Part shown: piece after piece, positions 16,956-32,645 of the stretch
Numbering within the stretch: position 1 is the stretch's first letter
Layout of the letters: each line of letters opens with the position of its first letter
Made by a program: the position numbers and the translations under genes
Source: Alphaproteobacteria bacterium
Lineage (GTDB): Bacteria > Pseudomonadota > Alphaproteobacteria > MPNO01 > UBA830
Assembly (NCBI GenBank): GCA_964291215.2
Contig: OZ219791.1
Span: 2,784,001-2,848,000 of the forward strand
Direction: 5' to 3'
DNA: 64,000 nt
Notes under the pieces: model-generated
What the model saw: only the letters and a program-made list of their open reading frames with translations
Told to the model about the DNA's origin: nothing
The model's database searches: none

Positions 16956-17957
16956 TCATGCCGAAAGCCCGATTTTCATCCGGATCAAATCAGCCAGCTT
17001 CTTGAAATCGTGATAGGCCTCGGAAACGGCCGCTGCATGGTTTCCGATCGCGCCGTCGGCCGCGGTAAGGTGGAAAACGGGTTTCCGGGCCTCCTGCGCC
17101 ATGGGAACCAGACTTCGATAGTGCCGGACGGTTGCAAGACAGTTCTTGTCGTTGCTCGGCTTGTCCGGAAAAGACCCGGCGTCGCAGTTCAACAAATGCC
17201 GGCGGTAGGCTTCGGGTATGCGGTTTACCCACTTGTCATAGGCCTGCACCGGCCGGCCAAGGCGTACGCCATGCTGCTGGACGACATATCCCATCGGCTT
17301 CATGCTGCCGCAGGGCAATTCAAAACCGGGCCAGGCCCAATTGTCTCGGCGTTTCGACCATTCGCTCGTCCACCTTGTCAGCGTCGGACCCAGGTTCCTC
17401 AGGCCTTGGAGAGAAAAGAGGTCTGCCCCCAGCGGCGCGATGACGTGATCGGTTGCGACGAGCGCCGAGCGGTTCAGGGCGCCCAGATTGGGGCCGACAT
17501 CCACGAGGATGATCGTCGCGTCGATGGATGCGGCGCCGCTCTGCATGGTCTGCCAGAATGCGGTGAGGATGCGGAACGGGCGGTACAGATTGGATTCGCC
17601 AAGGGCGTTGGGCCATTCGCTGGAAAGGCTGTCCTCGAAACTGGAGAGCGCCAGGTCGCCGGAAATGAGTCCGAGGGTTTCGGTGATCCGTTTCACCTGC
17701 GGTTCCTGCAAGTCTCCCACCTCCATCAACGGCTGGATGCACTGGTAGATGGTCTGGCTCTTTGCGCCGTCCTCCCACAGCGACTCGAGCGCGCGCTCGT
17801 CGAGGAAAGTTGCAGTCAGATTGGCTTGCGGATCGAGGTCGCAGGCCAGTACGCGCTCGCCGATCTCCGACAGCATCCAGGCGAGGTGATAGACTAGGGA
17901 CGTTTTGCCGACGCCTCCCTTGTTGTTGAAAAAGGTCAGGACCGGCGCGGCCATCAT
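16956..17957 (-). CDS. ParA/CobQ-family ATPase
   Basis: [32 protein letters not shown]. Confidence 0.92.
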
Positions 17958-19177
17958 GCGGCCTCCCCAGCTTCGGGAACTGCCCGTACCGTGGCGAGCA
18001 GGTGCGTCGGCTCGACCGTGAAGTCGAGTTCCGGATGTCCGGCCTCGCGTAACAGGCGTTGCGCGGTCGGTATCCCGATCCCGAATCTCTGCACATAGCC
18101 TAACACCCGCATGGCCTCGGCCAGATTCGGATTGCGGTAGTCCGTCACTCCGGGGCGGGCGAAGTTCTCCTTAGTGACCGACCCGAAGGGTCCGCCGGGA
18201 TTCTGGATTTCGATCCTGTCGTCGAACCAAGTGACGCGGACGGGAGCGTTCGTCGTTTCGTAATCGCGGTGAATGAGCGCGTTCCGTGCGAGTTCCCGCA
18301 AGGCGGTCATGGGGTAGCTGTCCACACGGCGTTCGACATCGTGAGTGGCGATGTCGACCCGGCGAAGGTTGTGCGACCGAAGCTTGTCGTCAAGGCGCGA
18401 TAGCATTTCGGGGATTGTCCCGTCGATTCTTCTCTCGTCGATAACCGGGTCCGAAAGGTCATGCCCCCCGATGCGCAGGAACTGTATGTACCCACCCGGA
18501 ATATAGTCCAGCGGCCTCGTTCCGAGCACCAGCAAACCGAGAATCGTGGCCTGCCCGTCGTCGACGGAAGCAATCATCTTGGCCGCGGCCAAGCGTTCCT
18601 CCAGGCTGCGGTTGTTGGCCCGCAGGAGTTCCCGGTCGATCGCATTGGGCAGATACTCGTCCTCGAACTGGCGTCGATTGAGATCGGCGATGCCGGTGCC
18701 CGGCACCGGCGAAATATCGAAAGGCCGGTCTCCGTGGCGCCGCCTCTCGTTCAGTATACGCTCTTCTTGGGCCGTCGCCACAGCCCGGCGCGGACCGTTG
18801 CGAATGTGGATCGCGCCCCGGTAGCGCACCGGTGGCGAGTCGGACGGCAGGACGGTCACAACGGCGATATCGTGGCCTCGATACCGGCGCTTCTCGGATA
18901 GGATCGGCGGCGGCGGCACGATGTTCCCGTCGCTGCGCATGTCGGCCAGCGCGCGCAGCATCTCGTCGGTGATGGGGGTGCCGGTTGGGACACCGTCGTC
19001 CCCCAGCCCGACGACTGCGATGCCCGGGAGTCCTGAGCCGGGAAGATCGTTGGCGAAGGAGCAGATCGCTTCGCGAAGCCGCGTCGGCGCATTGCCTCCT
19101 AGCGTCTCCTTGAATTCGACCCGCGTGCTTTCCGCGCCCTCGATCAGGCGCGCCAATTCGTCGTCGTCCAGTCTCAT
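17954..19177 (-). CDS. Schlafen/AlbA_2 domain + HATPase_c_4 (RecG C-terminal-like) protein
   Basis: ESTRVEFKE, ICSFAN, RELARNALIHRDY, RIEIQNPGG, YRNPNLAE, QRFGIGI. Confidence 0.88.
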   Translation of the reverse strand: MRLDDDELARLIEGAESTRVEFKETLGGNAPTRLREAICSFANDLPGSGLPGIAVVGLGDDGVPTGTPITDEMLRALADMRSDGNIVPPPPILSEKRRYRGHDIAVVTVLPSDSPPVRYRGAIHIRNGPRRAVATAQEERILNERRRHGDRPFDISPVPGTGIADLNRRQFEDEYLPNAIDRELLRANNRSLEERLAAAKMIASVDDGQATILGLLVLGTRPLDYIPGGYIQFLRIGGHDLSDPVIDERRIDGTIPEMLSRLDDKLRSHNLRRVDIATHDVERRVDSYPMTALRELARNALIHRDYETTNAPVRVTWFDDRIEIQNPGGPFGSVTKENFARPGVTDYRNPNLAEAMRVLGYVQRFGIGIPTAQRLLREAGHPELDFTVEPTHLLATVRAVPEAGEAA

Positions 19178-19543
19178 GGTCCCGCCTCCGCGGCTTTCCC
19201 GATCGCCGATACGGAGATCGTCCGCGAGACCTCCGCGAAGCCGGGCGGCGGTCCGAAAATCCGCGCCGGGTCGGGAACATAGAGCAGCCGGTGGACAAAG
19301 CCGTCTTCGACGAGCACGGCAGCGAGGATGAACGACCCTCCCGCGTTGAGCGCCGTCAGCATCTTGTTGCGCGTGACCGTGACGGCCTCTGCGTCCGCGC
19401 ACCGGCCCTTGATCTCGGTCAAGCGGAGGCCGCCGGTCTCAGGGTCGCGGCTTTCGATGTCACAACCTCGGTTCTCCGACGCAGCGTCGCGCGGCTCGTA
19501 TCCGAGGCTGCGTTCGCGTTTCATGATAGCCTCCATTGCCCTA

Positions 19544-20731
19544 GTAGTCTAACATTATTGTATTGATGGATATAGTGACTTCAGTTTCGTCCGGGCATCC
19601 TTCGTCGTGAAACGCCAGTCGACAGTGACATCGGCCGCATTGCGCCGTTCCACCCATGCTGCCGTCTCCCGCCGCATGGTGTCTCTGTCGGGAATGCGTC
19701 GCCGAAGGCACTGCCGCGACAGTGCACCGATCTCAATTTCGGCCATGTTGAGCCAGCTCCCGTGCTTCGGCGTGTAGCGAAACTCGAACCGCTTTCGCAC
19801 CCGCCTCCTCGGGCTCGAAGGCTTCATACAGCGACTGTGTGTGTTCAGATTGTCCAGCACGATCTTCCTGTCGGGGAAATGGTCGTCGGCAAGCTCCCGG
19901 ATGAAGTGCGCCCGGTTTCACAGCGGTCGGTGACTTTCACCGTGCGCCAGTTCTCGTTGGGCGCAAAGGCCAGGAAGAAGTTGGCCGTACCGTTGCGCTT
20001 ATATTCATGGTCGACCACCTCCGGCTGACCGGGGGTTTCCTTCGTCTGCTGCCGGCTGGTCTCGTACACCAGCACCTCACCCCCGGCAAAGTCCCGCTGA
20101 CAAATGTCAAGCACGTCCGCCGCCACGAACTGTGCGCTCCGGTGCGGTGGAATGCACCAGTACTGCTTCAGCCACGGCTTGAGCTCTTTTTTTAGCGTCT
20201 TCCTGACCGTCTCTTCCGAAATGCGCTCGACGATCTCCACCAGACGGCCGGCGAGCAGCGTCCACAGCCCTCGGGCGGGGACGAGCAGGGCGACCAGCTT
20301 CGCCTCCATCGCCCCGTTTCGGCCGACGGTTCACCTGCTCCTTGCGGCTGAGGGCAGCCTCCGGACCCTCCAGGACGCAGCGCAAGCGCTCGACCGTCGC
20401 CGTGCCCAGCGCAATGTCGGCATCGACAAGCGCCCCTCAGCATCAGGATTTGTGCCCGGCGCCCCCGGTGCCCGATCGCCTTCAGATCCCGGCGCTCCTG
20501 CGCTGAAAGGGTTACCCGGTAGAGCTTCCTGCCCCGAGAGTTGGCCATATGCGCCGCTCCTGTCATTGCGCCGAAGACCTGCGGGCATGCCCGTTGTCCG
20601 GACCTGCGCATGGGGCTGCGGCTGCCTGCCCGTTCGGCATCTTGCCCGTATCGACACTGTCCGGATTCCAACGGATGCCGACACAGGAATACTACCCACC
20701 AAAAACCATCAATACAATGCCGGTGGACTAC
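19544..20731 (-). mobile_element. IS630-family element, decayed
   Basis: IRs GTAGTCTAACATTATTGTATTGATGG / CCATCAATACAATGCCGGTGGACTAC flanked by duplicated TA (19542-3, 20732-3). KPWLKQYWCIP, EYKRNGT, LDNLNTH, TPKHGSWLNMAEIE. Confidence 0.93.
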
Positions 20732-20763
20732 TAGATTCGATTTCGGCGCGGGCTAGGGCGGAC

Positions 20764-21590
20764 GTGCAGCGAGTCTAGCTGCTGATCTTGCGGGTGAAAG
20801 TCCCGCAATTCTCAGTTTGGCGCCGTAGCATTGGTTCAGGGGCGACCCTGGACCAGCGAGCTGGGACGTAGGAAGCCGTCGTGGGCTGGCTGGAACTCAG
20901 TGTCCAGCCGGTTCGGTCAGCTAGGGCGGCGAGCAAACCGGAGGGCGAAAGCGAACGGGAAGCCCCGAAATTCCCCACCCACACGAAGCTGATTGTGGGA
21001 TAGACGGTGAACGCCAAGGTTGCTACCCGATGGCCAGTGTCGATGCGGAAGAACTGAGGAACACGCATCGGGTTCCCCGGGGTACAGACGGCGGCAATCC
21101 GGGACAGATCAGCAGTGAAAGACCGGAAGGTGAGGAGGACAGACAGGATGAAGCGACCCGTCAAGGACCGCGTCTATAACCGGGAAACGGGAAAGGACGC
21201 GGAGTCCACCTGACTGGCGGATGAGGTCGCCTAAGCGTTGACGGGCGGGACAACACAACCCGTCCCGAGCGAGGACCTCAGGGCTCAGGTGGCCTATGCG
21301 GCAGGTCAAGTCGGTACTCAGACCGACAGACTGCAAGGCCGAAGGACGGAGCAAACGCTCGGAGATGCCGTGGGTATGGCTGGGTCAGCCTTGACCATGG
21401 CGTGGGAAGGCTCCGCACCGAACTCCAAGTGGGTGCCTGATGCTTGAACCGGGAAAACCGGACGTACGGAATTTTAGGGGGGCTGCTGGAAACGTGGTCT
21501 ATGGCGATTCTGCGAACCCGCCCGCAATCGAAAGAGCGGTGACGGGTAAAGCCTTCGCCTAAGGATGCGCGCGCCAGTGGCCTACCCGAC
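20764..21590 (+). mobile_element. ORF-less group II intron, antisense within the helicase gene
   Basis: 5' GTGCAG; GGGTGAAAGTCCC; domain V-like GAACCGGGAAAACCGGACGTACGGAATTTTAGGGGGG; long domain VI ending CCTACCCGAC. Excision restores the flanking helicase frame. Confidence 0.82.
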
Positions 21591-23519
21591 GGTGGTTCCT
21601 TCGTGCCGTCCGGGGGAGGGGGGCGTCGCCCGCCTCTTCCCGGCGGAGAAGTCTCGCGGGCACGACAAGGCCGCGCCGCAGACTTCCGGGGGCAGCGGCG
21701 CGAGGTCCCGCTGGCGCGCAATGTCGGCGAGCCGATGCTCTAGGCGATCTGCCAATGCCTCCGCTTGGCGCCTTACATTCTCCGAGTTCAGCCGGGGATG
21801 CTTGCTCGCCTTCTCTTCCGCCTCCAGATCCAGGGCGCGGTGCTGGAGATGAACGATCTCGCGGCGTATCCGCTCTCTGATCGCCGTTTCGATCCTGTCG
21901 AGTATGGCGAGGCACGGCTCTCCTGCCTCCTCCAGATGCCGGGGGGCTAGGTCGGTGACCGCAAGCGTACGTGCCCGCTCTTCCAGGGGTTCCCTGAGCC
22001 AGGGCGCGCCCAGGGTCTCGCCGATCCCGTCCTGCTCTTCCGCCGTCGGCGCGCGGCAGTCCAGATATGGTGCCGGCCCGCCGTTGTTGGCACTGCCGAC
22101 TTCGTGGAGCCAGACGAATTGCAGCCGTTTGGAGAGCGTCTGCGGCTTGCCGTCCCGTGCCGCCCGGCCATCGCGGATCGCATGGTGCAACGTGACCAGA
22201 ATGCGGGCGTCGTCATGCCGGTCGGTGTCGTCGACCAGCACACTCCGCGCGCCAGAAGCTCGCGATAGCGCTCAAGCGTCAGATCGATCAGGGCATCGAG
22301 CAGTGGATGGCCGGGCGCAACAAGTGCCGCCTGCGGCTGGCCAGGGATGTGTTTCCTGTCGAAACAGATGCGACGATAGCGGGGCAGCACCGGATCGGCG
22401 CGGCCGATCAGACGGTCCCGGTCGCGCAAGACGGGCGGAACCCGCGTGATCTCGGCCCGGCCCGTCTCGCGACGGCGCAGGATGCTGCCGGCTTCCTCAA
22501 AAGCTGCCTCGAAGAAGGGGCGGATGTGGTGGGGTTGGAGCCGCCGCGCCGCCGCCCGCTTCATCTCCTCCTGCACGCCGCGGACCGTGGCTGGGTCGAA
22601 CCCCTCCCGGGTCAGCTTGTTGTGTGCGACGAGATCGTTGATGTTGTCGACATCGACCGCGCCGTCGATCGTCTGGAACAGCCTGTCGGATATCTCCGGC
22701 CGCTCGCCGTAGCGGATGGCTTCCATGAACAGCTCGCGCAGCGGCCGGGCCTCGAACAGTTCGCCGAGCACATCGTAGATCCTGCCGCCCAGGGTTTGCC
22801 GTGTCGTCTCCAGCTTTTCCAGAAGCCGTTGGTACACCGCGCCCTCGCGCGTTTCGTTCGCCACCAGGTTCCACAGGTGGCAGACCTCGGTCTGCCCGAT
22901 CCGGTGAATGCGCGCGAAGTGCTGCTCCGGCCGGTTGGGATTCCACGGCAGGTCGTAGTTGACCATCAGGTGAGCGCCGCGTTGCAGGTTCACCCCCTCG
23001 TCGGCAGCGTCGTTGGCGAGAAGGAAGCGGACGGAGGGATCGTCGTTGAACGCGACGATGGCGGCGCGCCGCCGGTCGCGCGGGACGCTGCCGTGGATGA
23101 CGGTCACACTGTCGGGCGCGCCCGTGCGGTCGCGGATACGGTGGGCGAGATACTCCAACGTGTCGCGCGCCTCGGTGAAGACGACGATCTTGCGGCGCGC
23201 GCCCTGCCGGGGATCGTGGATTGGGGGGTCGTCGAAGATGCGGTCGAGTTCGTGCCATTTGTCATCCTCGCCAGACCGGCGGAGCGCGTTCGCCATGGCT
23301 TCGAGCCGCCGCAGCTCGGCGACCTCGGCTTCAAGTTCGGCGACCGTGCGGGCCGCCGTGGCGCGGTCGACGAGTCGGTCTTCGTGCGCCTCCAGCTCTT
23401 CGCCCGTGGCGTCTTCGAGAGCATCGTTGTCGAGCATAGCTTTCGGCACGGCCGCTTCTCCGACCTCGTGCCCGGCGCGGCCGAGCCGTTCTTCCTCCAG
23501 CCGCGCCTCGAATCGCAAC

Positions 23520-23737
23520 GTCGTGAGGATGGCGGACGGGAAGGCGCCCGACATCAGGGCGGTGGTCATCGATCTCGACGCCTCGTCGGATCGCATCTTG
23601 CCGCACGGCAATCGCTCCCGGGAACGAAGAAGGTCTGGCAGGGTCTCGAGCGGCTGCACCGGGCGATCCAGGTGCGCGACGCACTGGGCAAGAGAAGGCG
23701 GGAATGAGATACCTGTATGAGTGTGGGATGTTGAAAG
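23520..23737 (+). mobile_element. IS4-family (Tn5-like) transposase 3' end remnant
   Basis: RQSLPGTKKVWQGLERL; ends TTGAAAG like the element at 56062-58002. Confidence 0.72.
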
Positions 23738-24124
23738 GCCTGTCGTGGCGGGACCGCGCAGGGAAAGGAGAAAGCCGAAGCCTGTGATGAACGGTTTGAA
23801 GAAGGGGCCCTGTGAAGGCGGCGAACAAGGGAGCTTCTGCGGAGTTGCTGGAGGAAAGGGCCTCGACCAAGGGGAATTCGGGACACAAAAGCACGCGCCG
23901 AACGCAGTGTCGGGTGCCACAGGCGGCGGACCGGATACGGAAAGCCGCAGAGGTTCGACTGGAAGCGACTGGAGCGCATGACCGAGATTCTTTGGCCGCG
24001 CGCAACAATCCGCCACCCATGGCCGGACCAGCGGTTTGCCGTCAAGCACCCGAGGGCGGATGGATTAACGTCCATGTCCGGATTTGTGCGGGGGGTGCGC
24101 AGTAATGCGCATTCCTACCGTAAC
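23738..24124 (+). mobile_element. group II intron remnant (5'-truncated, RT ORF internally deleted)
   Basis: RT start (VPQAADRIRKAA) joined to RT end (IRHPWPDQRFAVKHPR); domain V/VI CGGATGGATTAACGTCCATGTCCGGATTTGTGCGGGGGGTGCGCAGTAATGCGCATTCCTACCGTAAC. Confidence 0.82.
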
Positions 24125-25273
24125 TCGGTGACGACATGGAGCGATCGGGTCCTGCCGTCGACCCGGAAGCCGGTTTCGTCGACATGCAGGGCCGGGCGTT
24201 CCGGCAGCTCGGCGATGGCGGCCTGGAGTGCAGCGCGTCATGCAGGCGCCTGACGCAGGCGAGGCAGGTGGCCTCGTAGAGCCTGAGCCCGGAGACCGCC
24301 TGCACCAGCGCGACGGCGCAGGGACAGCATTTGGGCGACCGGCAGGTTGATGACGAAGGCCTGCAGACCGACGCCGTATTGCAGCGGCCCGGGCATGGTC
24401 TCGGGAAACCGCCCCCGGCAATCCGGGCATTCCTTGACCTCGGCGTCGATGCGGCGCTCGATGACCTCGAAGACGATGTCGTACGACGCTCCCGGTCGAC
24501 AGCCTCGACGCCATCGAGGCCGCAGGCCTCGACGGCGACCGTCTCCTCGACGATGGTCTTCCAGAGGTTGTCGCCCGTCTGCAGGTTCGGCTTCGGGCCC
24601 TTGCCGCTGGCGCCCTTGCGCCGCTCGTCCTTGTCCGTCTGCGACGGCGCAAGGCCGGAGTTGGCGCCGGTGGGTCGTCTTCTCCAGCAGGACGGCAATC
24701 AGGATGCTCACCAAGGTGGACAGCACGCGGATCACGTCATCGGCCTCTCCGGATATCTTGCCGGCAGCGCCGCGATCCTGGCCGCCTCGAACTCCTCGCG
24801 CAGCGACGCCGCGTCGCCCGGCGGCATCTTCCGGTACCCCGCCGCCTGGCCTTGCGCCTGATGCGCTGACGGTCCGTGCGGTTCCGTCCGACATCGCCGG
24901 CCGAGTGCATCCGCCCGGGCTCGAAGTCGAGCCACCTCGGTGCGGACCCGGGGCGTCACCTGCACGGCGATGCGGCGCCAGTCCCGCAGCAGGTCGTCGT
25001 ACAACGCCGAGGCGCGGCCCGAGACCATCGCCTGACACGGCAGCCCCTTGAGCAGTTCAAGGAGTTCGACATGGTTGGCTTCGGTGCAGTCGTGACGGTA
25101 CCGCCGCTTCGATCGGCGGGTCGCCTGCAGGGGTCGCTGCAGACCAGTTTCGTGCCCCGGAACGCAAGGCCGGCCAGGAACGCGTGGGCGCAGCCGTGGA
25201 TCAGTTCCACCGGATAATCGCACCCGAACCCGTCCAGCGATCGCCGGTCGATCCCGATCGAGCGCAAGGCCGG
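24125..25273 (-). mobile_element. IS66-family remnant: DNA methyltransferase fragment plus transposase 5' half
   Basis: PALRSIGID..YPVELIHGCAH..SDP..HVELLELL..VSG..LYD MTase fragments; EKTT..NSGLAPSQTDK, ECPDC, LHVDETGFRVDG. Confidence 0.82.
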
Positions 25274-26569
25274 GTGATGGCGACGGTCAACGCGGCGCGC
25301 GAGGAGTTCGAAGCGGCCAAGACCGCGGCGCTGCGTGCGGCCGGCAAGGTGGCGGAAGAGGCCGTCATCCGCGTCCTTGTCATCCTGCTCGACATCATCA
25401 TCGTCGTCCTTCTGGAGAAGACCACGCGCAAAACGAGCCGGAACTCCGGTCTGCCGCCGTCACAGACGGACAAGAGCGTGCCGGAAGCAACGGCAAGGGC
25501 CCGAAGCCGAACCGGCAGATGGGCGACAACCTGCGCAAGACCATCGTCGAGGAAACGGTTGCGGCCTGCGACGCCTGCGGCGCTGACATCGACGGCCCCG
25601 TCGATCGGGAGCGCCGCGTCCTCTATGACATCGTGTTCGAGGTCGTCGAGCGCCGCGCCGAGATCAAGGAATGCCCGAAGTGCAAGGGCCGGTTCCCCGA
25701 CAACATCCCGTGCAGTACGGCATCCAGGCCCTCGTCATCAACCTGCTGGTCGCCCAGATGCTATCCCTGCGCCGTCGCGTTCGTGCAGGCGATCTCCGGC
25801 ATCAAGCTCTCCGAGGCAACCTGCCTCGGCTATGCTTTCACGATGCGTCATGGGAGGAGGCCGCCGTGGCGCACCTCCTGCAACGCCCAGCCCTGCATGT
25901 CGACGAGACCGGATTTCGGATCAACAGTAAGTGGCTCCATGTCGTGGGACCCTGACGTGCAAGTTCCCGCACCGCAAGCGCGGGCAAGAGATCGGCCCGT
26001 GCTACAAGGGCGTCCTGGGCCTCGTACATGGGCCAGTGTAGCCACCAGCTGTGCGGTAGCCACCTGCTGCGCGAACTGACCTTTGTCGTCGAGGCTACCG
26101 CGCGACTGATGAAGAGCCTGCTCCGCGAGGTCTGCCACAAGGTCAACAAGAGCGCATCTAAAACCCTGAACGACGCCGGGCCGTGCGCAAGCGCTACCGC
26201 ACCATCAGGGCGCCAAGGAACTGCCCGACATTCCGCCGCCGCCGAAAGGAAAACGTGGACGCAAGTCCGACGCGCACAACCTGCACGAACGTCTCGTGAA
26301 ACACGAAAACCTGCGCTTCACAGACGACCCCAACGTCAGCTTCACCAACAATGCCGGAGAACAGAAGATCAGGATGGCAAAGGTCAAGGTGTCCGGGTGC
26401 TTCCGCTCCACGCAAAAGCATGGTGCCGGGGCTCAAGCTACCTCACCTCCATGGCCGCACTCGGCTACAACCCACTCGTCGCCACCCAGATCGCCCTCGA
26501 CGGAAAAGCCGCAGACATCATCAACGAGCACTATGGCCAATCAGAATCCAACTAGGGGTGAGTAGATAC
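25262..26569 (+). mobile_element. IS66-family (single-ORF ISBst12-like) transposase copy A, decayed
   Basis: NSGLPPSQTDK, LHVDETGFR, HQLCGSHLLREL, FTNNAGEQKIRMAKVK; right end GGGGTGAGTAGATAC; near-identical to 54069-55345. Confidence 0.92.
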
Positions 26570-26688: not shown

Positions 26689-27144
26689 TCAGTTGCGGTT
26701 CTCGTACTGTTCCAGGCCCTCGATGGCGTCGAGATTCTCGGCGCGCCCGCGAAGTTCGATGACATTGCGGTCGGGGTCCCTGACGAAAACCGAGACATGG
26801 CTTCCGCGCTCAAACATTACCGGCCCCTGGGTGATCGTGATGCCGTGCTCCTTGAGCAGCCTGATGGTGTCGGCGATCGAGGATACCCGAAGCGCGAGAT
26901 GCGTCATGCCTGCGTACTTGGTGTCGATATCCATGAGGATGTTGCTGCCGTCATGTTCGGGCGCGGCATTGACGACCAGATTGATCTCGACGTTCTGGGC
27001 GTTGCGGATGATGATCACCGGATCGAAGGTAATCCGCTTCTCAACCTTGAAGCCCAACACCTCGTAGAAGCCCAGCGCACGCTCCGCGTCCGCGACCCGG
27101 ATACCGACATGGTCGACCTGCTCGATGCCGATCGTCTCCGTCAT
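26689..27144 (-). CDS. VOC/glyoxalase family protein
   Basis: DHVGIRV..FYEVLGF..HLALRV..FVRDPDRNVIEL. Confidence 0.9.
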   Translation of the reverse strand: MTETIGIEQVDHVGIRVADAERALGFYEVLGFKVEKRITFDPVIIIRNAQNVEINLVVNAAPEHDGSNILMDIDTKYAGMTHLALRVSSIADTIRLLKEHGITITQGPVMFERGSHVSVFVRDPDRNVIELRGRAENLDAIEGLEQYENRN

Positions 27145-28796
27145 GTGTTACTCCTGTCGACCGCCGGAGCGCCGGTTCCGGCGGGCTTCAGCGTTTCGCG
27201 CCCGCGCAGAATGTCCGACATGCGTTCGGCAAACATGATTATCGGCGCGTTGATGTTTCCCCCCACCATGTCGGGGAAGACCGAGCCGTCGATAACGCGA
27301 AGGTTCTCGGCGCCCCGCACACGCAGTTCGGGATCGACAACGGCCGCTTCGTCGCTGTCCGGGCCCATCTTGCAGGTGCCGAGCGGATGATGCGCGGTCC
27401 ACGCCGTGCGCTTGATGAAATCGTCGAGCGGTTCGTCCCGCGGCTGAATTTCGCGTCCGCGGAATTTATCGAGCGCTTCCTGGCGTGCGATCTCCCTCAC
27501 TATCCCGATGCCGTCGCGGAGCGTCTGCCAGTCCTCCGGTTCGGTCAGGAAGTTCTGGTGGATCTGCATGTGATCGGCGGGGTTGGCTGATCTCAGCGTC
27601 AGTTCGCCGACGCTCTTGGGGTGCAGCAGGACTGGCCGCACCATGAAGGCGTCGTTCGGCTTGGGCCGGAGGCCGGGGAACCAGGGTTTGGATTCGGGCG
27701 GAATGAAGCGCGCGAGCAACTGGATGTCGGGTTGCGCGAGTCCGTCTTTCGAATGGATGAAACCCGTGAGCGGGCCCGGCATCTCGGTGGCGAATCCGGT
27801 GCCGAAGAAGTACGCGCGAGCCATGGCAAGCGCAATCCGGTCGTAGCGAAGAAGCCCGACGAATGGACCGTCGCCGTTGCGCTCGTATTCGACGCCGACC
27901 GAGAGGTGGTCCTGGAGGTTGCAGCCCACGCCCTTCGAGTCGATCACCGTATCGATGCCATGCGCCTTCACGCGGTTGCCGTCGCCGATCCCCGACAGCA
28001 TCAGCAGCTGCGGCGAGTTTATGACCCCGCCCGAAAGGATGACCTCGCGCTCCGCCCGCGCCACCGTCGTCCCGCGGCCTCCGGTGGAATACTCGATGCC
28101 CGTCGCCCTCGCGCCCTCGAGAATGACCCGGTGCGCCAGCGCCCGCGTCACCACGGTCAGGTTGGCGCGCTTCATCGCCGGGCGCAGATAGGCGACCGCG
28201 GCGCTGCACCGGCGGCCGTTGCGGATGGTCGACTGGAACGTGCCGAGGCCTTCGTTGGTCGCGCCGTTATAGTCGGACGTGGTTCCGTATCCGGCCGACT
28301 CGCCGGCCGCGAGCCACGCCGCCAGCAGAGGATCAGGATACTTGTTCTCTATCGTCGTCAGCGGGCCTCCGGAGCCGCGATAGTCGTCTTCACCACCTTC
28401 CCAGTCCTCCGATTTCCGGAAATACGGCAGGCACTCGTCATAGGACCAGCCCGTGCAGCCGTTCCGGCTCCAGCGGTCATAGTCCTCGCGGTGGCCGCGC
28501 ACATAGCCCATGGCGTTGATCGATGAAGAGCCGCCGAGCACCTTGCCGCGTGCGCACTCGACCTCGCGCCCGTCGAACTGGGCTTCGGGCTCCGTGAAAT
28601 AGCCCCAGTCGAACAGCCGCTCGAACAGAATCTTGCCCCAGCCGAGAGGGATCGTGATGTAGGGATGGCGGTCGCTGCCGCCGGCCTCGATGACCAGCAC
28701 CCGGGTATCCGGATCCTCGGTCAGGCGGTTGGCAAGCGTGCAGCCGGCCGAGCCGGCGCCGACGATCACGTAGTCATAGCTGTTGCCGTTGCTCAT
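27141..28796 (-). CDS. GMC oxidoreductase (choline dehydrogenase-like)
   Basis: YDYVIVGAGSAG, RGKVLGGSSSIN, NLQDH, HHPLGTCKMG, GNINAP. Confidence 0.93.
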   Translation of the reverse strand: MSNGNSYDYVIVGAGSAGCTLANRLTEDPDTRVLVIEAGGSDRHPYITIPLGWGKILFERLFDWGYFTEPEAQFDGREVECARGKVLGGSSSINAMGYVRGHREDYDRWSRNGCTGWSYDECLPYFRKSEDWEGGEDDYRGSGGPLTTIENKYPDPLLAAWLAAGESAGYGTTSDYNGATNEGLGTFQSTIRNGRRCSAAVAYLRPAMKRANLTVVTRALAHRVILEGARATGIEYSTGGRGTTVARAEREVILSGGVINSPQLLMLSGIGDGNRVKAHGIDTVIDSKGVGCNLQDHLSVGVEYERNGDGPFVGLLRYDRIALAMARAYFFGTGFATEMPGPLTGFIHSKDGLAQPDIQLLARFIPPESKPWFPGLRPKPNDAFMVRPVLLHPKSVGELTLRSANPADHMQIHQNFLTEPEDWQTLRDGIGIVREIARQEALDKFRGREIQPRDEPLDDFIKRTAWTAHHPLGTCKMGPDSDEAAVVDPELRVRGAENLRVIDGSVFPDMVGGNINAPIIMFAERMSDILRGRETLKPAGTGAPAVDRSNT

Positions 28797-28975: not shown

Positions 28976-30316
28976 TCAGCGGCGCTGCCCCGTATCCTTG
29001 AGGCCGCGGAGCGCCTTTTCGGCAGCCTTGGTGTCGGCGATGCCGGCCTTGCGGTCGACCGGGACTGTCTCCTTCTGGCCGGCCTTCGGAAGCTTCTCGA
29101 ACGGGTAGACGGCGATCTTGTCGTTTCCTGCCGACGTGTCGCGGTCGAGGACGAGGTCCCTGGCGTTGGTCTTGCCGCTTCGCATTGCGCGGCCGTGCTT
29201 CTTCGCCGTCTCCAGGTCGAGCCACCACTTGCCGGCCACGTTGCGCCGGCCGAAGCCCATCTTGTCGTCGAGCCAGATCAGGAACCGACGTGACCAGGGG
29301 AGGCGGATCGCGGCCCACATCGCAAGCCGGTGCTGCAGCAGCCCTTCCTTGTTCCAGGGGCACATCTTCATGCACCTGCCGCAGGAGGAACCCTTGAGGT
29401 TCGTGACCCGGTACTTGGTGCATTTCTCGACATCGGGCTTCCAAGTCTCGTAGCCGTTGTAGAGCACTTTCTCCCCGTAGGGGATGGCCTGGGCAGGGCA
29501 TTCGCGGGCGCACTTCATGCACTTGGCGCAGAAGTCCTGCAGCCCGAAGTCTATCGGCTTGTCGACCGTCATCGGAAGGTTGGTCGTGATTATCGCCGTC
29601 TTGTGGCGCGGCCCGACGAACGGGTTGAGCACGAGTTCGCCGATGCGGCTCATTTCGCCGAGCCCGGCCAGCAGCATCAGCGGAATCTGCAGCACATCGC
29701 CGTCGGCGTTGGAATGCGCCTGCGCCTCGTAGCCCAGCCGGCGGATGTAGTCGGCAACGACGACCGAGATCGTCGAGCCCTTGAGATAGGCGCGGTAGCT
29801 CTGGGCACCCGAGATCCAGTCGTCGCCCGAAGACGCCTCAAGGGTCTCCCAGCGCTGGTCGACGACCACGACGATGGCGTATTTGTGCTTCGCCTCTATG
29901 GGCTCACCGTCCATGTCGTGGCTGTACCAGGCCCATTCCGGGCACTCGCAAATGCCGACGATGTCGGCATCGAGGAAGTGGCAGAGCGCCTTGATGTGCT
30001 TCGCCATCCCCTCGGGATCGGAGGGAAGTTCGGCCGGTTCCGCATAGGGATCGCCCCGGTGGGTGGGGACCTGGGTCCAGTGCACATGGCCCATCGCAGC
30101 GTTGAGCGGATTCTTGGTGATAAAGCGGCGTATCTCCTTGCCGGCCGTCGGTCCGAGGTCGCCGAAAAAGGCGCGCACGAAGAATCCGGCCCGTTTCGGA
30201 ACCCGTTCTATGCTGTCGGTGATCAGCGTCGTCGGCCGGTCGACCCGGGGGATCTTCTCCATCGGGAAGCGGCCCATGTAGAGTGGCCGTCCGCGCCGTG
30301 AGAGTATGCCCAGCAT
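28976..30316 (-). CDS. catabolic-type reductive dehalogenase (cobalamin, 2x[4Fe-4S])
   Basis: HIKALCHFLDADIVGIC..W.YS, YIRRLGYEA, AGLGEMSRIG..LNPFVGPR.K, DFCAKCMKCARECP and CGRCMKMCPWN; no Tat signal. Confidence 0.88.
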   Translation of the reverse strand: MLGILSRRGRPLYMGRFPMEKIPRVDRPTTLITDSIERVPKRAGFFVRAFFGDLGPTAGKEIRRFITKNPLNAAMGHVHWTQVPTHRGDPYAEPAELPSDPEGMAKHIKALCHFLDADIVGICECPEWAWYSHDMDGEPIEAKHKYAIVVVVDQRWETLEASSGDDWISGAQSYRAYLKGSTISVVVADYIRRLGYEAQAHSNADGDVLQIPLMLLAGLGEMSRIGELVLNPFVGPRHKTAIITTNLPMTVDKPIDFGLQDFCAKCMKCARECPAQAIPYGEKVLYNGYETWKPDVEKCTKYRVTNLKGSSCGRCMKMCPWNKEGLLQHRLAMWAAIRLPWSRRFLIWLDDKMGFGRRNVAGKWWLDLETAKKHGRAMRSGKTNARDLVLDRDTSAGNDKIAVYPFEKLPKAGQKETVPVDRKAGIADTKAAEKALRGLKDTGQRR

Positions 30317-30338
30317 TCCTGACCTCCCGGGCGCCGCT

Positions 30339-31148
30339 TCAGGGCAGGCGCACGACGGGATCGTCGCTTCGTGCGCGCCGATCGAGGAAGCGCGCGAGCG
30401 CTTCCCTGAAATAGGGATGGCCGACCGACTCCATCACGTTCTGGATCTCGAATTCCGTGGCTTCCTCGATCGACCGGCGCCAGCCCATGTGGAAACTCTC
30501 CCTGGCCATGGCCTGAAGATGGGTGGGTCCGGCCGCAAGATCTCTGGCGACCGACCAGGCATCGGCCTCGAACCGGTCGCGGCCGTAGATCCGGTTGACG
30601 ATCTGCCACTCAAGCGCTTCGCGAGCGTCAAGGGCGCGGTTGGTCAGCATCAGTTCCATGGCGCGACGGAAGCCGACGATCTTGACCAGCGAATAGCTCG
30701 TCGTGGCATCGTTGGCGAGGCCTATCGAATGCCAAGCACAGAGGAAGCGGGCATCGTCGGTGCACACCACGATGTCCGAACAGAGCGCTATGCCGAGCCC
30801 GGAGCCGGCCGCGACGCCGTTGACGGCAGAGAATACCGGTTTTCGCAACCGCACGATAAGGTGGAACACTTGGTGCCACCACATCGCCAGTTCCCGGAAG
30901 TGGGGGCTGATTCCCTCGTCAGTCGCCGGGATTTCCTTGAGGTTGAAACCCGAACAGAAGGCATCTCCAGCACCTGTGAACATCACGGCTCCGACCGTGT
31001 CGTCGGCCTCGGCCCGAAAAAGTGCGTCATGGGTTTCACGGACGCCCGCAAGATCGAGCGCGTTGGCGTATTGCGGCAGGTTGAACACCACCCTGGCAAC
31101 GCCGTCAGTCACCTCGTAGCGGATGCTGTTGTAAGTTGCAGTGTTCAA
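30339..31148 (-). CDS. fcbB: 4-chlorobenzoyl-CoA dehalogenase homologue (crotonase fold)
   Basis: Matches the remembered Pseudomonas CBS3 enzyme along its length: HFR..A.WWHQ (His90), CAWH.IG..ND..TSYSL (Trp137, Asp145), PTHLQ.MA.E.FH.GW, TEFEIQNV..SV.HP. Confidence 0.88.
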   Translation of the reverse strand: MNTATYNSIRYEVTDGVARVVFNLPQYANALDLAGVRETHDALFRAEADDTVGAVMFTGAGDAFCSGFNLKEIPATDEGISPHFRELAMWWHQVFHLIVRLRKPVFSAVNGVAAGSGLGIALCSDIVVCTDDARFLCAWHSIGLANDATTSYSLVKIVGFRRAMELMLTNRALDAREALEWQIVNRIYGRDRFEADAWSVARDLAAGPTHLQAMARESFHMGWRRSIEEATEFEIQNVMESVGHPYFREALARFLDRRARSDDPVVRLP

Positions 31149-31538: not shown

Positions 31539-32645
31539 TCATTCAGCTGCTTCGCGGTGTCCGATCGCCGCATTGACCGCCGGCATGACCTTCTCGGCCA
31601 TCAGCTCCATCGACCGCCTGCCGAGCGCCTTGTCCTCCCAGTCCTTGCCGGCGTAAAGAAGCGTCCCGAATTCCCCGGTTACCTCACGGAACGCCAGCAG
31701 CTGGTCGATCACCGAGTTCACGTCGCCGGCGATGACGAGGCTGTCGACCACGAAGTCCAGCGTCAGCCGGTCGTCGGGGAACTCCCGCTCGGGCTTGAAC
31801 ACCTCATGGCGGTTGGCCTTCTTCAGCTTGGTGAACAGCTGCCTGTAGTAGAACCGGTAAGGGCTGCGTTCGCTGTCCCGCCCGTACTCCAGCGCTGTCG
31901 CATGATCGTCATGGACGAAGATCGAGCGGGCGATCCGCCAGTCGGCGGGATCGGCCGTGCGCCCGGCCTCGGAACAGCCCTGTGCGTAGTTGGTCCAGTG
32001 GGTCTGGACCCACTTGTCGAGGAGGAAGTTCGCCGAGATAGGGAGGAAGCCCTTGCGGCCCATCTCGATGACGCCCTTGGAGAAGGGGGCGACGACGGTG
32101 CCGAGCACGGGCGGGTGGGGCTTCTGGTAGGGCTTGGCGATCGGGCCGAGCCCGATCTCGGGAAACAGCGTCTCGCGGGTGGTGATGTTCCAGTGCTCGC
32201 CCTCGAGGTCGTAGGGCGGTTCGCCCTGCCATATGTCGAGGATGTGGCCTATGGATTCGGCGAACATCTCGTTGCGGTCGATGCCGCGGATGCCCAGCGC
32301 TTCGGCATCCGATTCGAGGGCGCCGGGGCTGACGCCGAACAGGAAACGGCCCTTCAGCAGATGATCCAGCATCGCTGCCTGGGCGGCGACCAGTACCGGG
32401 TGGGTGTGCGACAGGTTGGTGGTTCCGGTGCCGAGCTTGATCTGGCTGGTCTCGGAGATCAGGCTTGCCTGAAAGAGCATCGAGTTGGTGATGCTCTCTG
32501 CCGCGTCCGTGACGTGCTCGCCGACATAGGCCTCGGAATAGCCGAGCCGGTCGGCAAGTATGATGGCTTCGCGGTCTTCCTGCAGGACCTCCGTGTAGTC
32601 GCGATCCAGCCGATGTACCGGCATCGTGAAAAAACCAAGTTTCAT
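31539..32645 (-). CDS. LLM-class flavin-dependent monooxygenase
   Basis: MKLGFFTMPVH, AYVGEH, IKLGTG, LDHLLKGRF, PYQKPHPP. Confidence 0.9.
   Translation of the reverse strand: MKLGFFTMPVHRLDRDYTEVLQEDREAIILADRLGYSEAYVGEHVTDAAESITNSMLFQASLISETSQIKLGTGTTNLSHTHPVLVAAQAAMLDHLLKGRFLFGVSPGALESDAEALGIRGIDRNEMFAESIGHILDIWQGEPPYDLEGEHWNITTRETLFPEIGLGPIAKPYQKPHPPVLGTVVAPFSKGVIEMGRKGFLPISANFLLDKWVQTHWTNYAQGCSEAGRTADPADWRIARSIFVHDDHATALEYGRDSERSPYRFYYRQLFTKLKKANRHEVFKPEREFPDDRLTLDFVVDSLVIAGDVNSVIDQLLAFREVTGEFGTLLYAGKDWEDKALGRRSMELMAEKVMPAVNAAIGHREAAE

Follow-up and report, generated by a model that had tools for sequence, protein, structure and literature searches.

The locus

The window analysed here is a stretch of 64,000 nucleotides from contig OZ219791.1 of an alphaproteobacterium (assembly GCA_964291215.2), the genome of which is 6.15 Mb in size and 99% complete, its relatives being titled uncultured Alphaproteobacteria. 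On the minus strand of the window, two genes from different dehalogenase families lie back to back (Table 1); the upstream gene, fcbB, encodes an FcbB-like 4-halobenzoyl-CoA dehalogenase of the crotonase fold and the downstream gene, rdhA, encodes a cytosolic reductive dehalogenase (RdhA). The first-pass annotation had placed the end of the crotonase gene 22 bp before the gene for the Fe-S protein and this spacing is exact. No terminator-like site was found in the spacer, a layout consistent with co-transcription of the two genes, whilst a promoter scan of the locus, uninformative in itself, returned no sigma-70 site. As originally described, neither fcbA nor fcbC nor rdhB adjoins the pair, and no small membrane ORF is called beside rdhA. 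In all four sequencing runs examined, of which three, from as many studies, carry the label sponge metagenome and one is marine, the fcbB-rdhA junction was bridged by a contig ~94-96% alike.

Table 1. Features of the fcbB-rdhA locus and related genes of the source genome (window positions unless a contig is given)
Feature	Position	Strand	Remarks
fcbB-like 4-halobenzoyl-CoA dehalogenase, crotonase fold	30339..31148	-	269 aa, TTG start
fcbB H92 codon	30873-30875	-	kept catalytic residue
fcbB W139 codon	30732-30734	-	kept catalytic residue
fcbB D147 codon	30708-30710	-	kept catalytic residue
fcbB S116 codon (G114 in 1NZY)	30801-30803	-	substituted
fcbB-rdhA spacer	30317..30338	-	22 nt, contains GGAGG ribosome-binding site
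Single-domain cytosolic reductive dehalogenase (RdhA)	28976..30316	-	446 aa, ATG start after GGAGG
RdhA first [4Fe-4S] motif, CxxCxxCxxxCP	29495..29530	-	C263-P274
RdhA second [4Fe-4S] motif, Cx12CxxCxxxCP	29357..29422	-	C299-P320
Luciferase-like monooxygenase, context	31539..32645	-	matched in 24/26 family genomes, pair-less ones included
GMC oxidoreductase, context	27141..28796	-	retained at most pair-less sites
VOC/glyoxalase-family protein, context	26689..27144	-	retained at most pair-less sites
Standard two-domain NpRdhA-type RdhA (R at 307)	G000:C2:1809497-1811695 (L114)		
Short RdhA-like gene	G000:C2:2425146-2426144 (L115:9147-10145)		332 aa; TIGR02486 112 bits, under cut-off

The FcbB-like protein

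The best match of the FcbB-like protein among PDB structures is the 4-chlorobenzoyl-CoA dehalogenase 1NZY (E 6e-103, against 2e-31 for the best non-dehalogenase crotonase); the two proteins are of the same length and 153 of 264 residues are identical (~58%), as counted from the alignment. In the characterised enzyme His90 is the base, and Trp137 and the Phe64/Trp89 cradle also belong to the catalytic set. The motifs WWHQ (H92), CAWH (W139) and NDATTSY (D147), from which the catalytic set was first recognised, do align with H90, W137 and D145 of 1NZY, and F68, W91 and E234 are retained as the equivalents of F64, W89 and E232. Asp145 acts as the nucleophile (PMC6100074). In a quick tree, as are all the fcbB and RdhA trees reported here, calculated without 1NZY itself, the protein clusters with FcbB homologues apart from five outgroup crotonases (SH-aLRT 100).

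Two active-site positions differ from 1NZY, G114 being replaced by S116 and T146 by A148, and the whole environmental FcbB clade carries S, A or V at 114 together with the T146 to A change. It could be argued that this clade mainly displaces another para leaving group, or runs some other aryl-CoA reaction leading to 4-hydroxybenzoyl-CoA, given that the changes at both positions are conserved clade-wide and are matched by changes in the pocket of the partner ligase (V208A, A280G and N311C/S), and that members of the clade are common in marine lineages, for which little man-made 4-chlorobenzoate would be expected. However, Gly114 lies in the oxyanion hole, to which the position contributes a backbone NH that a serine would preserve; the D145, H90, W137, F64, W89 and E232 equivalents are intact in a protein of this identity, and the linkage to a B12 dehalogenase, which arose twice independently as described below, points to halogens. 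We consider a non-halogen role to be quite improbable.

A search for FcbB-RdhA fusions yielded one longer homologue (751 aa) among 7995 scored candidates, and this had no RdhA family match, which is weak evidence that such fusions are absent; no FcbB match was found on plasmids at E 1e-60. In certain Acidobacteriota/Myxococcota loci (P0123; L036, L038, L040 and L070), FcbB is fused to, or lies beside, a 470-aa region with no NCBIfam match at E 1e-30.

The single-domain RdhA

The downstream protein scores 190.5 bits against the RdhA profile TIGR02486 (cut-off 160.35) and 28.6 bits against the QueG profile TIGR00276 (cut-off 200), and a Foldseek search with its AlphaFold model (pLDDT 91) gave a TM-score (TMq) of 0.93 to NpRdhA (E 2.5e-52) as opposed to 0.35 to QueG (E 1e-5). 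The epoxyqueuosine reductase QueG, the other identity considered for this Fe-S protein at the outset, is ruled out by these profile scores and structural matches. Both Fe-S motifs (C263-C273 and C299-C319) are present as annotated, and the N-terminus contains RR but is not hydrophobic over any stretch, 0.42 being the highest value for a 19-residue window within residues 1-60, in agreement with the earlier description of an enzyme with no twin-arginine translocation (Tat) peptide; membrane helix, vestigial B12 domain and reductase fusion are likewise absent.

The alignment with NpRdhA covers residues 252-685 of the latter only (~50% identity), and because the intact fcbB upstream leaves no space for it, the vestigial domain is truly missing. 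In PMC10463259, a vestigial duplicate of the cobalamin-binding domain is what defines the catabolic RdhAs, and the window RdhA therefore falls outside that class in the strict sense used there. Despite this it likely functions like a catabolic RdhA. S173, Y177, K239 and R303 correspond to NpRdhA S422, Y426, K488 and R552 and do not vary in any of the 211 aligned rows, near-copies included; of the NpRdhA residues, S422, K488 and R552 bind the phenolic OH and Y426 is the proton donor, according to PMC7565698. F290, F291, F310 and N452 of NpRdhA are also conserved, whilst K307I, P311I, A419G and M423Y are substitutions.

One-domain relatives of 412-466 aa account for ~75 of the best 120 matches, and the one-domain RdhAs form a single clade (44 rows, SH-aLRT 99). 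The window protein is predicted to be a homodimer, with a score of 0.94 against 0.00 for the best control, contact agreement of at least 87% and pLDDT of at least 91, a mark which 20 of 30 homodimers and one of 23 monomers of solved structure also reached; this call may, however, stem from resemblance to PceA dimers and to the NpRdhA pseudo-dimer. Both genes are under purifying selection, with ratios of nonsynonymous to synonymous substitution (dN/dS) of 0.08 and 0.12 for fcbB and 0.09 and 0.12 for rdhA in comparisons with two relatives each.

Conservation of the pair in the window family

The survey of gene neighbourhoods that had been suggested for this locus found the pairing to be conserved within the family of the source genome (the window family, sampled as 26 genomes) and also in a separate betaproteobacterial operon. 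Within the family, fcbB was matched in 12 genomes and this rdhA in 11, all of them among the 12 fcbB carriers, whereas the 14 genomes lacking fcbB also lack this rdhA. The two genes are directly adjacent in ten genomes; in G001 fcbB is interrupted by a contig break and rdhA lies at the end of another contig. At 17 related loci the spacer measures 6-19 nt in 13 and 128 nt in four.

Ten pair-less sites were examined. The six from genus g4 read luciferase-like monooxygenase, marR, AEC transporter, with exactly both dehalogenase genes missing; elsewhere the monooxygenase gene is followed by that of the GMC oxidoreductase (G004) or by sdhB (G017), and the G003 site is rearranged. In G020, where no hcrA match was found, the slot for marR-fcbB-rdhA (L209:6765-7943) holds pobA (575 bits, over the cut-off of 538.7). 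A tree of flanking genes, covering 22 of the 26 family genomes with the four for which no site was fetched left out, forces five changes in pair presence, and on this modest evidence the pair looks to be ancestral in the family, with five joint losses and one loss of rdhA only.

The luciferase-like monooxygenase is a core gene of the family, and it, the GMC and VOC proteins, the AEC transporter and MarR were rejected as members of a module with the dehalogenases since they persist at pair-less sites. A 144-aa gene between the monooxygenase gene and fcbB in relatives has the size expected of the FcbC thioesterase but actually encodes the MarR regulator; no significant marR or AEC remnants were found in the window spacers. 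Downstream of rdhA in genus g6 (L022, L023, L025 and L126), genes for a LuxC-like reductase, a LuxE-like ligase and an SDR lie on the opposite strand. An Sdh/Frd-like flavoprotein and Fe-S pair and a FAD aromatic hydroxylase are encoded near the site in L018-L020, L023-L025, L208 and L209, with or without the dehalogenase pair. Directly downstream of the VOC gene, window positions 17954-26565 hold genes for a Schlafen/AlbA_2-RecG-C protein and a SNF2-like helicase fragment, together with what appear, by eye, to be pieces of broken insertion sequences.

A second operon type and the wider contexts of fcbB and rdhA

An operon of the order marR-fcbB-fcbA-rdhA was found in four betaproteobacterial genomes (three titled Burkholderiales), in three of which an ABC binding protein gene follows. 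The RdhA of this type is a two-domain protein, on a long branch within the two-domain group, and the accompanying fcbB falls in a different starred clade from that of the window; it thus appears that the pairing arose at least twice, from separate lineages of both genes. Across 63 fcbB loci of the genome_contigs set, an FcbA-like ligase gene directly follows fcbB in 27, and in the sister family f2, where 16 of 20 genomes carry fcbB, the gene mostly comes after hcrCAB, with or without one alpha/beta hydrolase gene between (L106-L108 and L251-L262; hcrA over the cut-off). Both contexts fit 4-hydroxybenzoyl-CoA as the product. An NpRdhA-like gene anywhere in the genome was seen for 26 of 50 (50 of the 63 fcbB loci), a figure which was not used as evidence.

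Looked at from the side of rdhA, eight of 80 metagenome loci carry fcbB, all being of the window-family type. One-domain RdhAs with ~73-77% identity and the same pocket string of 12 residues are encoded at a great distance from fcbB in f2, and next to a glutathione S-transferase (GST) gene in family f4, in which none of 25 genomes has an fcbB match. More distant one-domain RdhAs adjoin gentisate dioxygenase or 3-hydroxyanthranilate dioxygenase. This variety of neighbours, which also includes CaiB with a crotonase, raises the question of whether the two genes have simply come to lie together by chance in a general aromatic-catabolism region, RdhA acting on simple ortho-bromo- or iodophenols and sharing no chemistry with FcbB. 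The lack of a basic residue at the position of NpRdhA K307 and the synteny of the entire region in the family, unrelated genes such as photolyase included, would agree with this. However, despite the rarity of fcbB (two of 400 class genomes) there is another fcbB-fcbA-rdhA operon of separate phylogeny, the spacer remains short, and the pair has been precisely excised in g4; chance co-location is therefore regarded as unlikely.

Other gene arrangements were seen around one-domain rdhA genes. In G037 and G040 (L100:8146-10742 and L101:8430-11062), two in tandem lie between a TRAP transporter and a gentisate 1,2-dioxygenase gene, possibly for the use of halo-gentisate or halo-salicylate. In L134, L136, L157, L234 and L235 the order is marR, a Lin0512-family gene, GST and one-domain rdhA, near genes for TauD and an ornithine cyclodeaminase-like protein; the GST and B12 dehalogenase would be another candidate for a two-mechanism combination, and a related GST gene lies divergently beside members of a distant fcbB subfamily (L064-L078). 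In metagenome loci L153 and L155 a one-domain rdhA near genes for a 3-hydroxyanthranilate 3,4-dioxygenase and a molybdo-enzyme may point to the breakdown of halogenated tryptophan or anthranilate.

Remaining pathway genes and the question of a CoA-bound substrate

The source genome encodes an FcbA-like ligase away from the pair (C1:2287924-2289507), and the want of an adjacent ligase is thus no puzzle. This ligase matches 4-chlorobenzoate CoA ligase at E 7e-117, against 2e-55 for the next family, and its pocket string is that of most ligases encoded directly beside fcbB. Of the genes for later steps, hcrA and hcrB are over the cut-off and hcrC is just under it, and boxB, pobA, gentisate dioxygenase and cobN are present, as are five 4HBT_2 thioesterase-like matches, none established as FcbC. 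Besides the window rdhA there are two further RdhA-like genes, one for a two-domain NpRdhA-type protein and one short (Table 1). Tandem genes for proteins of 330-350 aa, one of which weakly matches QueG, occur with a PaaK-like ligase gene at C2:2103315-2106670 (L215) and in L031, L032, L096, L098 and L099; they precede fcbB-fcbA in L031 and L032 and lie near one-domain rdhA in f2.

An obligate relay at the CoA level can be envisaged, in which FcbB would turn a vicinal dihalo acid into 3(,5)-halo-4-hydroxybenzoyl-CoA and RdhA would dehalogenate this thioester directly for HcrCAB. JtRdhA tolerates a bulky para group in tetrabromobisphenol A, as reported in PMC10463259. Within the window family rdhA is never retained without fcbB, neither operon type contains a thioesterase gene, hcrA occurs in 11 of the 12 fcbB genomes, the Burkholderiales enzyme is on a long branch, and the source genome already owns a two-domain RdhA of the standard kind, in which position 307 is R. 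Both fcbB-linked RdhA lineages, moreover, have a hydrophobic residue in place of NpRdhA K307 and an aromatic one in place of M423, whereas the other two-domain rows (near-copies among them) have K or R at 307 in 64 of 73 and M at 423 in 70 of 73; a basic residue at 307 is found in six of 134 one-domain rows and in none of the four from Burkholderiales.

Against such a relay, the same pocket signature is found in one-domain RdhAs of fcbB-less genomes (G881 and G882), hcrA is also present in seven of 14 fcbB-less family genomes, and in Burkholderiales the hcrA-like matches are under the cut-off whilst pobA is over it in 4/4. BhbA, the pathway of which runs through the free acid, has D at position 307 in a pairwise alignment. 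In NpRdhA itself, K307 contacts a carboxylate solely when the ligand is bound non-productively at the entrance (PMC7565698). Because of these last two points, the residues at 307 give little indication that the substrate is a CoA ester. We think it doubtful that the relay is obligate.

The same idea can be extended to a fully CoA-bound route for marine, natural vicinal dihalo aromatic acids, in which FcbB would make the phenol, a homodimeric RdhA would debrominate the thioester and HcrCAB would yield benzoyl-CoA. Candidate substrates are 3,4-dibromobenzoates and compounds released in the breakdown of 5,6-dibromoindoles from sponges or of 4,5-dibromopyrrole-2-carboxylate. This is offered as a speculative proposal with a rather low chance of being right; if true, it would make this RdhA the first, within the literature searched, to use a CoA ester, and would also show what an enzyme familiar from the breakdown of polychlorinated biphenyls acts on in nature.

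Proposed role of the pair

We favour, giving it an even chance, the reading that the pair is an inherited gene unit which funnels halogenated benzoic acids to 4-hydroxybenzoyl-CoA, in parallel or as a relay depending on the substrate. A stand-alone FcbA-like ligase would form the CoA ester, on which the FcbB-like enzyme would exchange the para halogen for OH by nucleophilic aromatic substitution, with D147 as nucleophile and H92 as base. RdhA, a B12 enzyme which is probably homodimeric and ferredoxin-fed, would reductively strip halogens beside the new OH, S173, K239 and R303 binding the phenolate and Y177 protonating. The product could leave through HcrCAB and Box or through a thioesterase and PobA. 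The protein identities, residues, gene linkage, co-loss and pathway genes are observations, and we infer every substrate, the order of the steps and the co-transcription of the two genes.

The first-pass annotation had proposed a relay for polyhalogenated benzoates, in which hydrolysis at the para position creates the phenol that RdhA requires. This is chemically coherent, and relay would be expected where one ring bears both kinds of halogen, but a strict relay is not required: fcbB-less genomes also harbour close relatives of rdhA with the same pocket, and RdhA must therefore have a substrate without FcbB. A parallel funnel, with the two enzymes acting separately on 4-halo and 3(,5)-halo-4-hydroxy substrates, seems to fit at least as well. 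In either case the pair, as far as can be told from the genes, likely lets uncultured marine bacteria strip bromine or chlorine at two ring positions of natural aromatic acids and use the ring as food.

The funnel should be considered with caution, however, as a number of observations weigh against it. G114 and T146 are both replaced in the window FcbB, and a G114A mutant of the characterised enzyme is reportedly strongly impaired. The partner ligase retains I303, which in the characterised 4-chlorobenzoate CoA ligase is said to disfavour 3,4-dichlorobenzoate, and its orthologues, present in 11 of the 12 fcbB family genomes, are also found in seven of 14 fcbB-less ones and so are not pair-specific. 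No redox partner adjoins RdhA, the best genome match to an NpRdhA-type ferredoxin reductase being 25%. An rdhA gene lies within 8 kb at only 13 of the 63 fcbB loci (nine of the window family and the four betaproteobacterial ones), and in G006 fcbB is kept whilst rdhA is reduced to a 57-aa remnant. Co-loss is in any case weak evidence, as one deletion can remove adjacent genes, the family genomes are kin, and a shuffle test on the flank tree was unremarkable (23/500). Finally, a common MarR as the sign of a common inducer was rejected; its nearest relatives among the loci examined adjoin dehalogenases, yet in an unbiased control set only two of 12 homologues from family f4 were within 1.5 kb of a dehalogenase, and none of 401 phylum genomes was matched.

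Significance and comparison with known systems

FcbB is known from pollutant degraders; here it appears ancestral in marine lineages of two sister families (11 of 25 and 16 of 20 genomes), and close relatives of the window fcbB occur in sponge metagenomes. Two separate unions of fcbB with a B12 dehalogenase gene point to a flux of natural halogenated benzoates in the marine halogen cycle. No published description of the pairing was found in searches of a literature collection with few subscription journals. The small single-domain RdhA should be an easy target for the published E. coli btu expression systems, and as assay substrates for both enzymes can be bought or readily prepared, the question of a relay is directly testable.

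In comparison with FcbB (PDB 1NZY/1JXZ) and the fcbABC pathway, the window protein shares ~58% identity and the catalytic residues, and an FcbA-like ligase is encoded in the genome. It differs in the G114S and T146A changes, in having an RdhA gene behind it instead of a ligase or thioesterase gene beside it, and in its host, a marine, uncultured alphaproteobacterium that also carries hcrCAB and boxB. Another route reportedly combines reductive and hydrolytic dehalogenation at the level of CoA esters, that for 2,4-dichlorobenzoate in Corynebacterium sepedonicum KZ-4 and strain NTB-1, with NADPH-dependent reduction at C2 preceding hydrolysis; that reductase is not known to be a B12 RdhA, and the pocket of the window RdhA points instead to a halogen ortho to a phenol, and hence to action after hydrolysis.

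The window RdhA resembles NpRdhA of Nitratireductor pacificus (PDB 4RAS, 6ZXU/6ZY1), BhbA and JtRdhA in having no Tat peptide, with ~50% identity and a TMq of 0.93 to the catalytic domain, but it belongs to a clade of its own, is a predicted homodimer and has no vestigial B12 domain, reductase fusion or adjacent ferredoxin or reductase. Unlike the respiratory RdhAs it has no Tat signal peptide, RdhB anchor or N-terminal membrane helices. The RdhA-like proteins of the "simplified cytosolic type", compared by their description in PMC12219181, are similarly cytosolic and without the vestigial domain; they are, however, ~395 aa long and typical of Desulfobacterota/Chloroflexota, whereas the window clade is ~440 aa and, where named, mostly proteobacterial. 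The fcbB-rdhA pair is thus a combination of two known dehalogenase families which is real, conserved and twice-evolved, with an RdhA from an uncharacterised single-domain clade.

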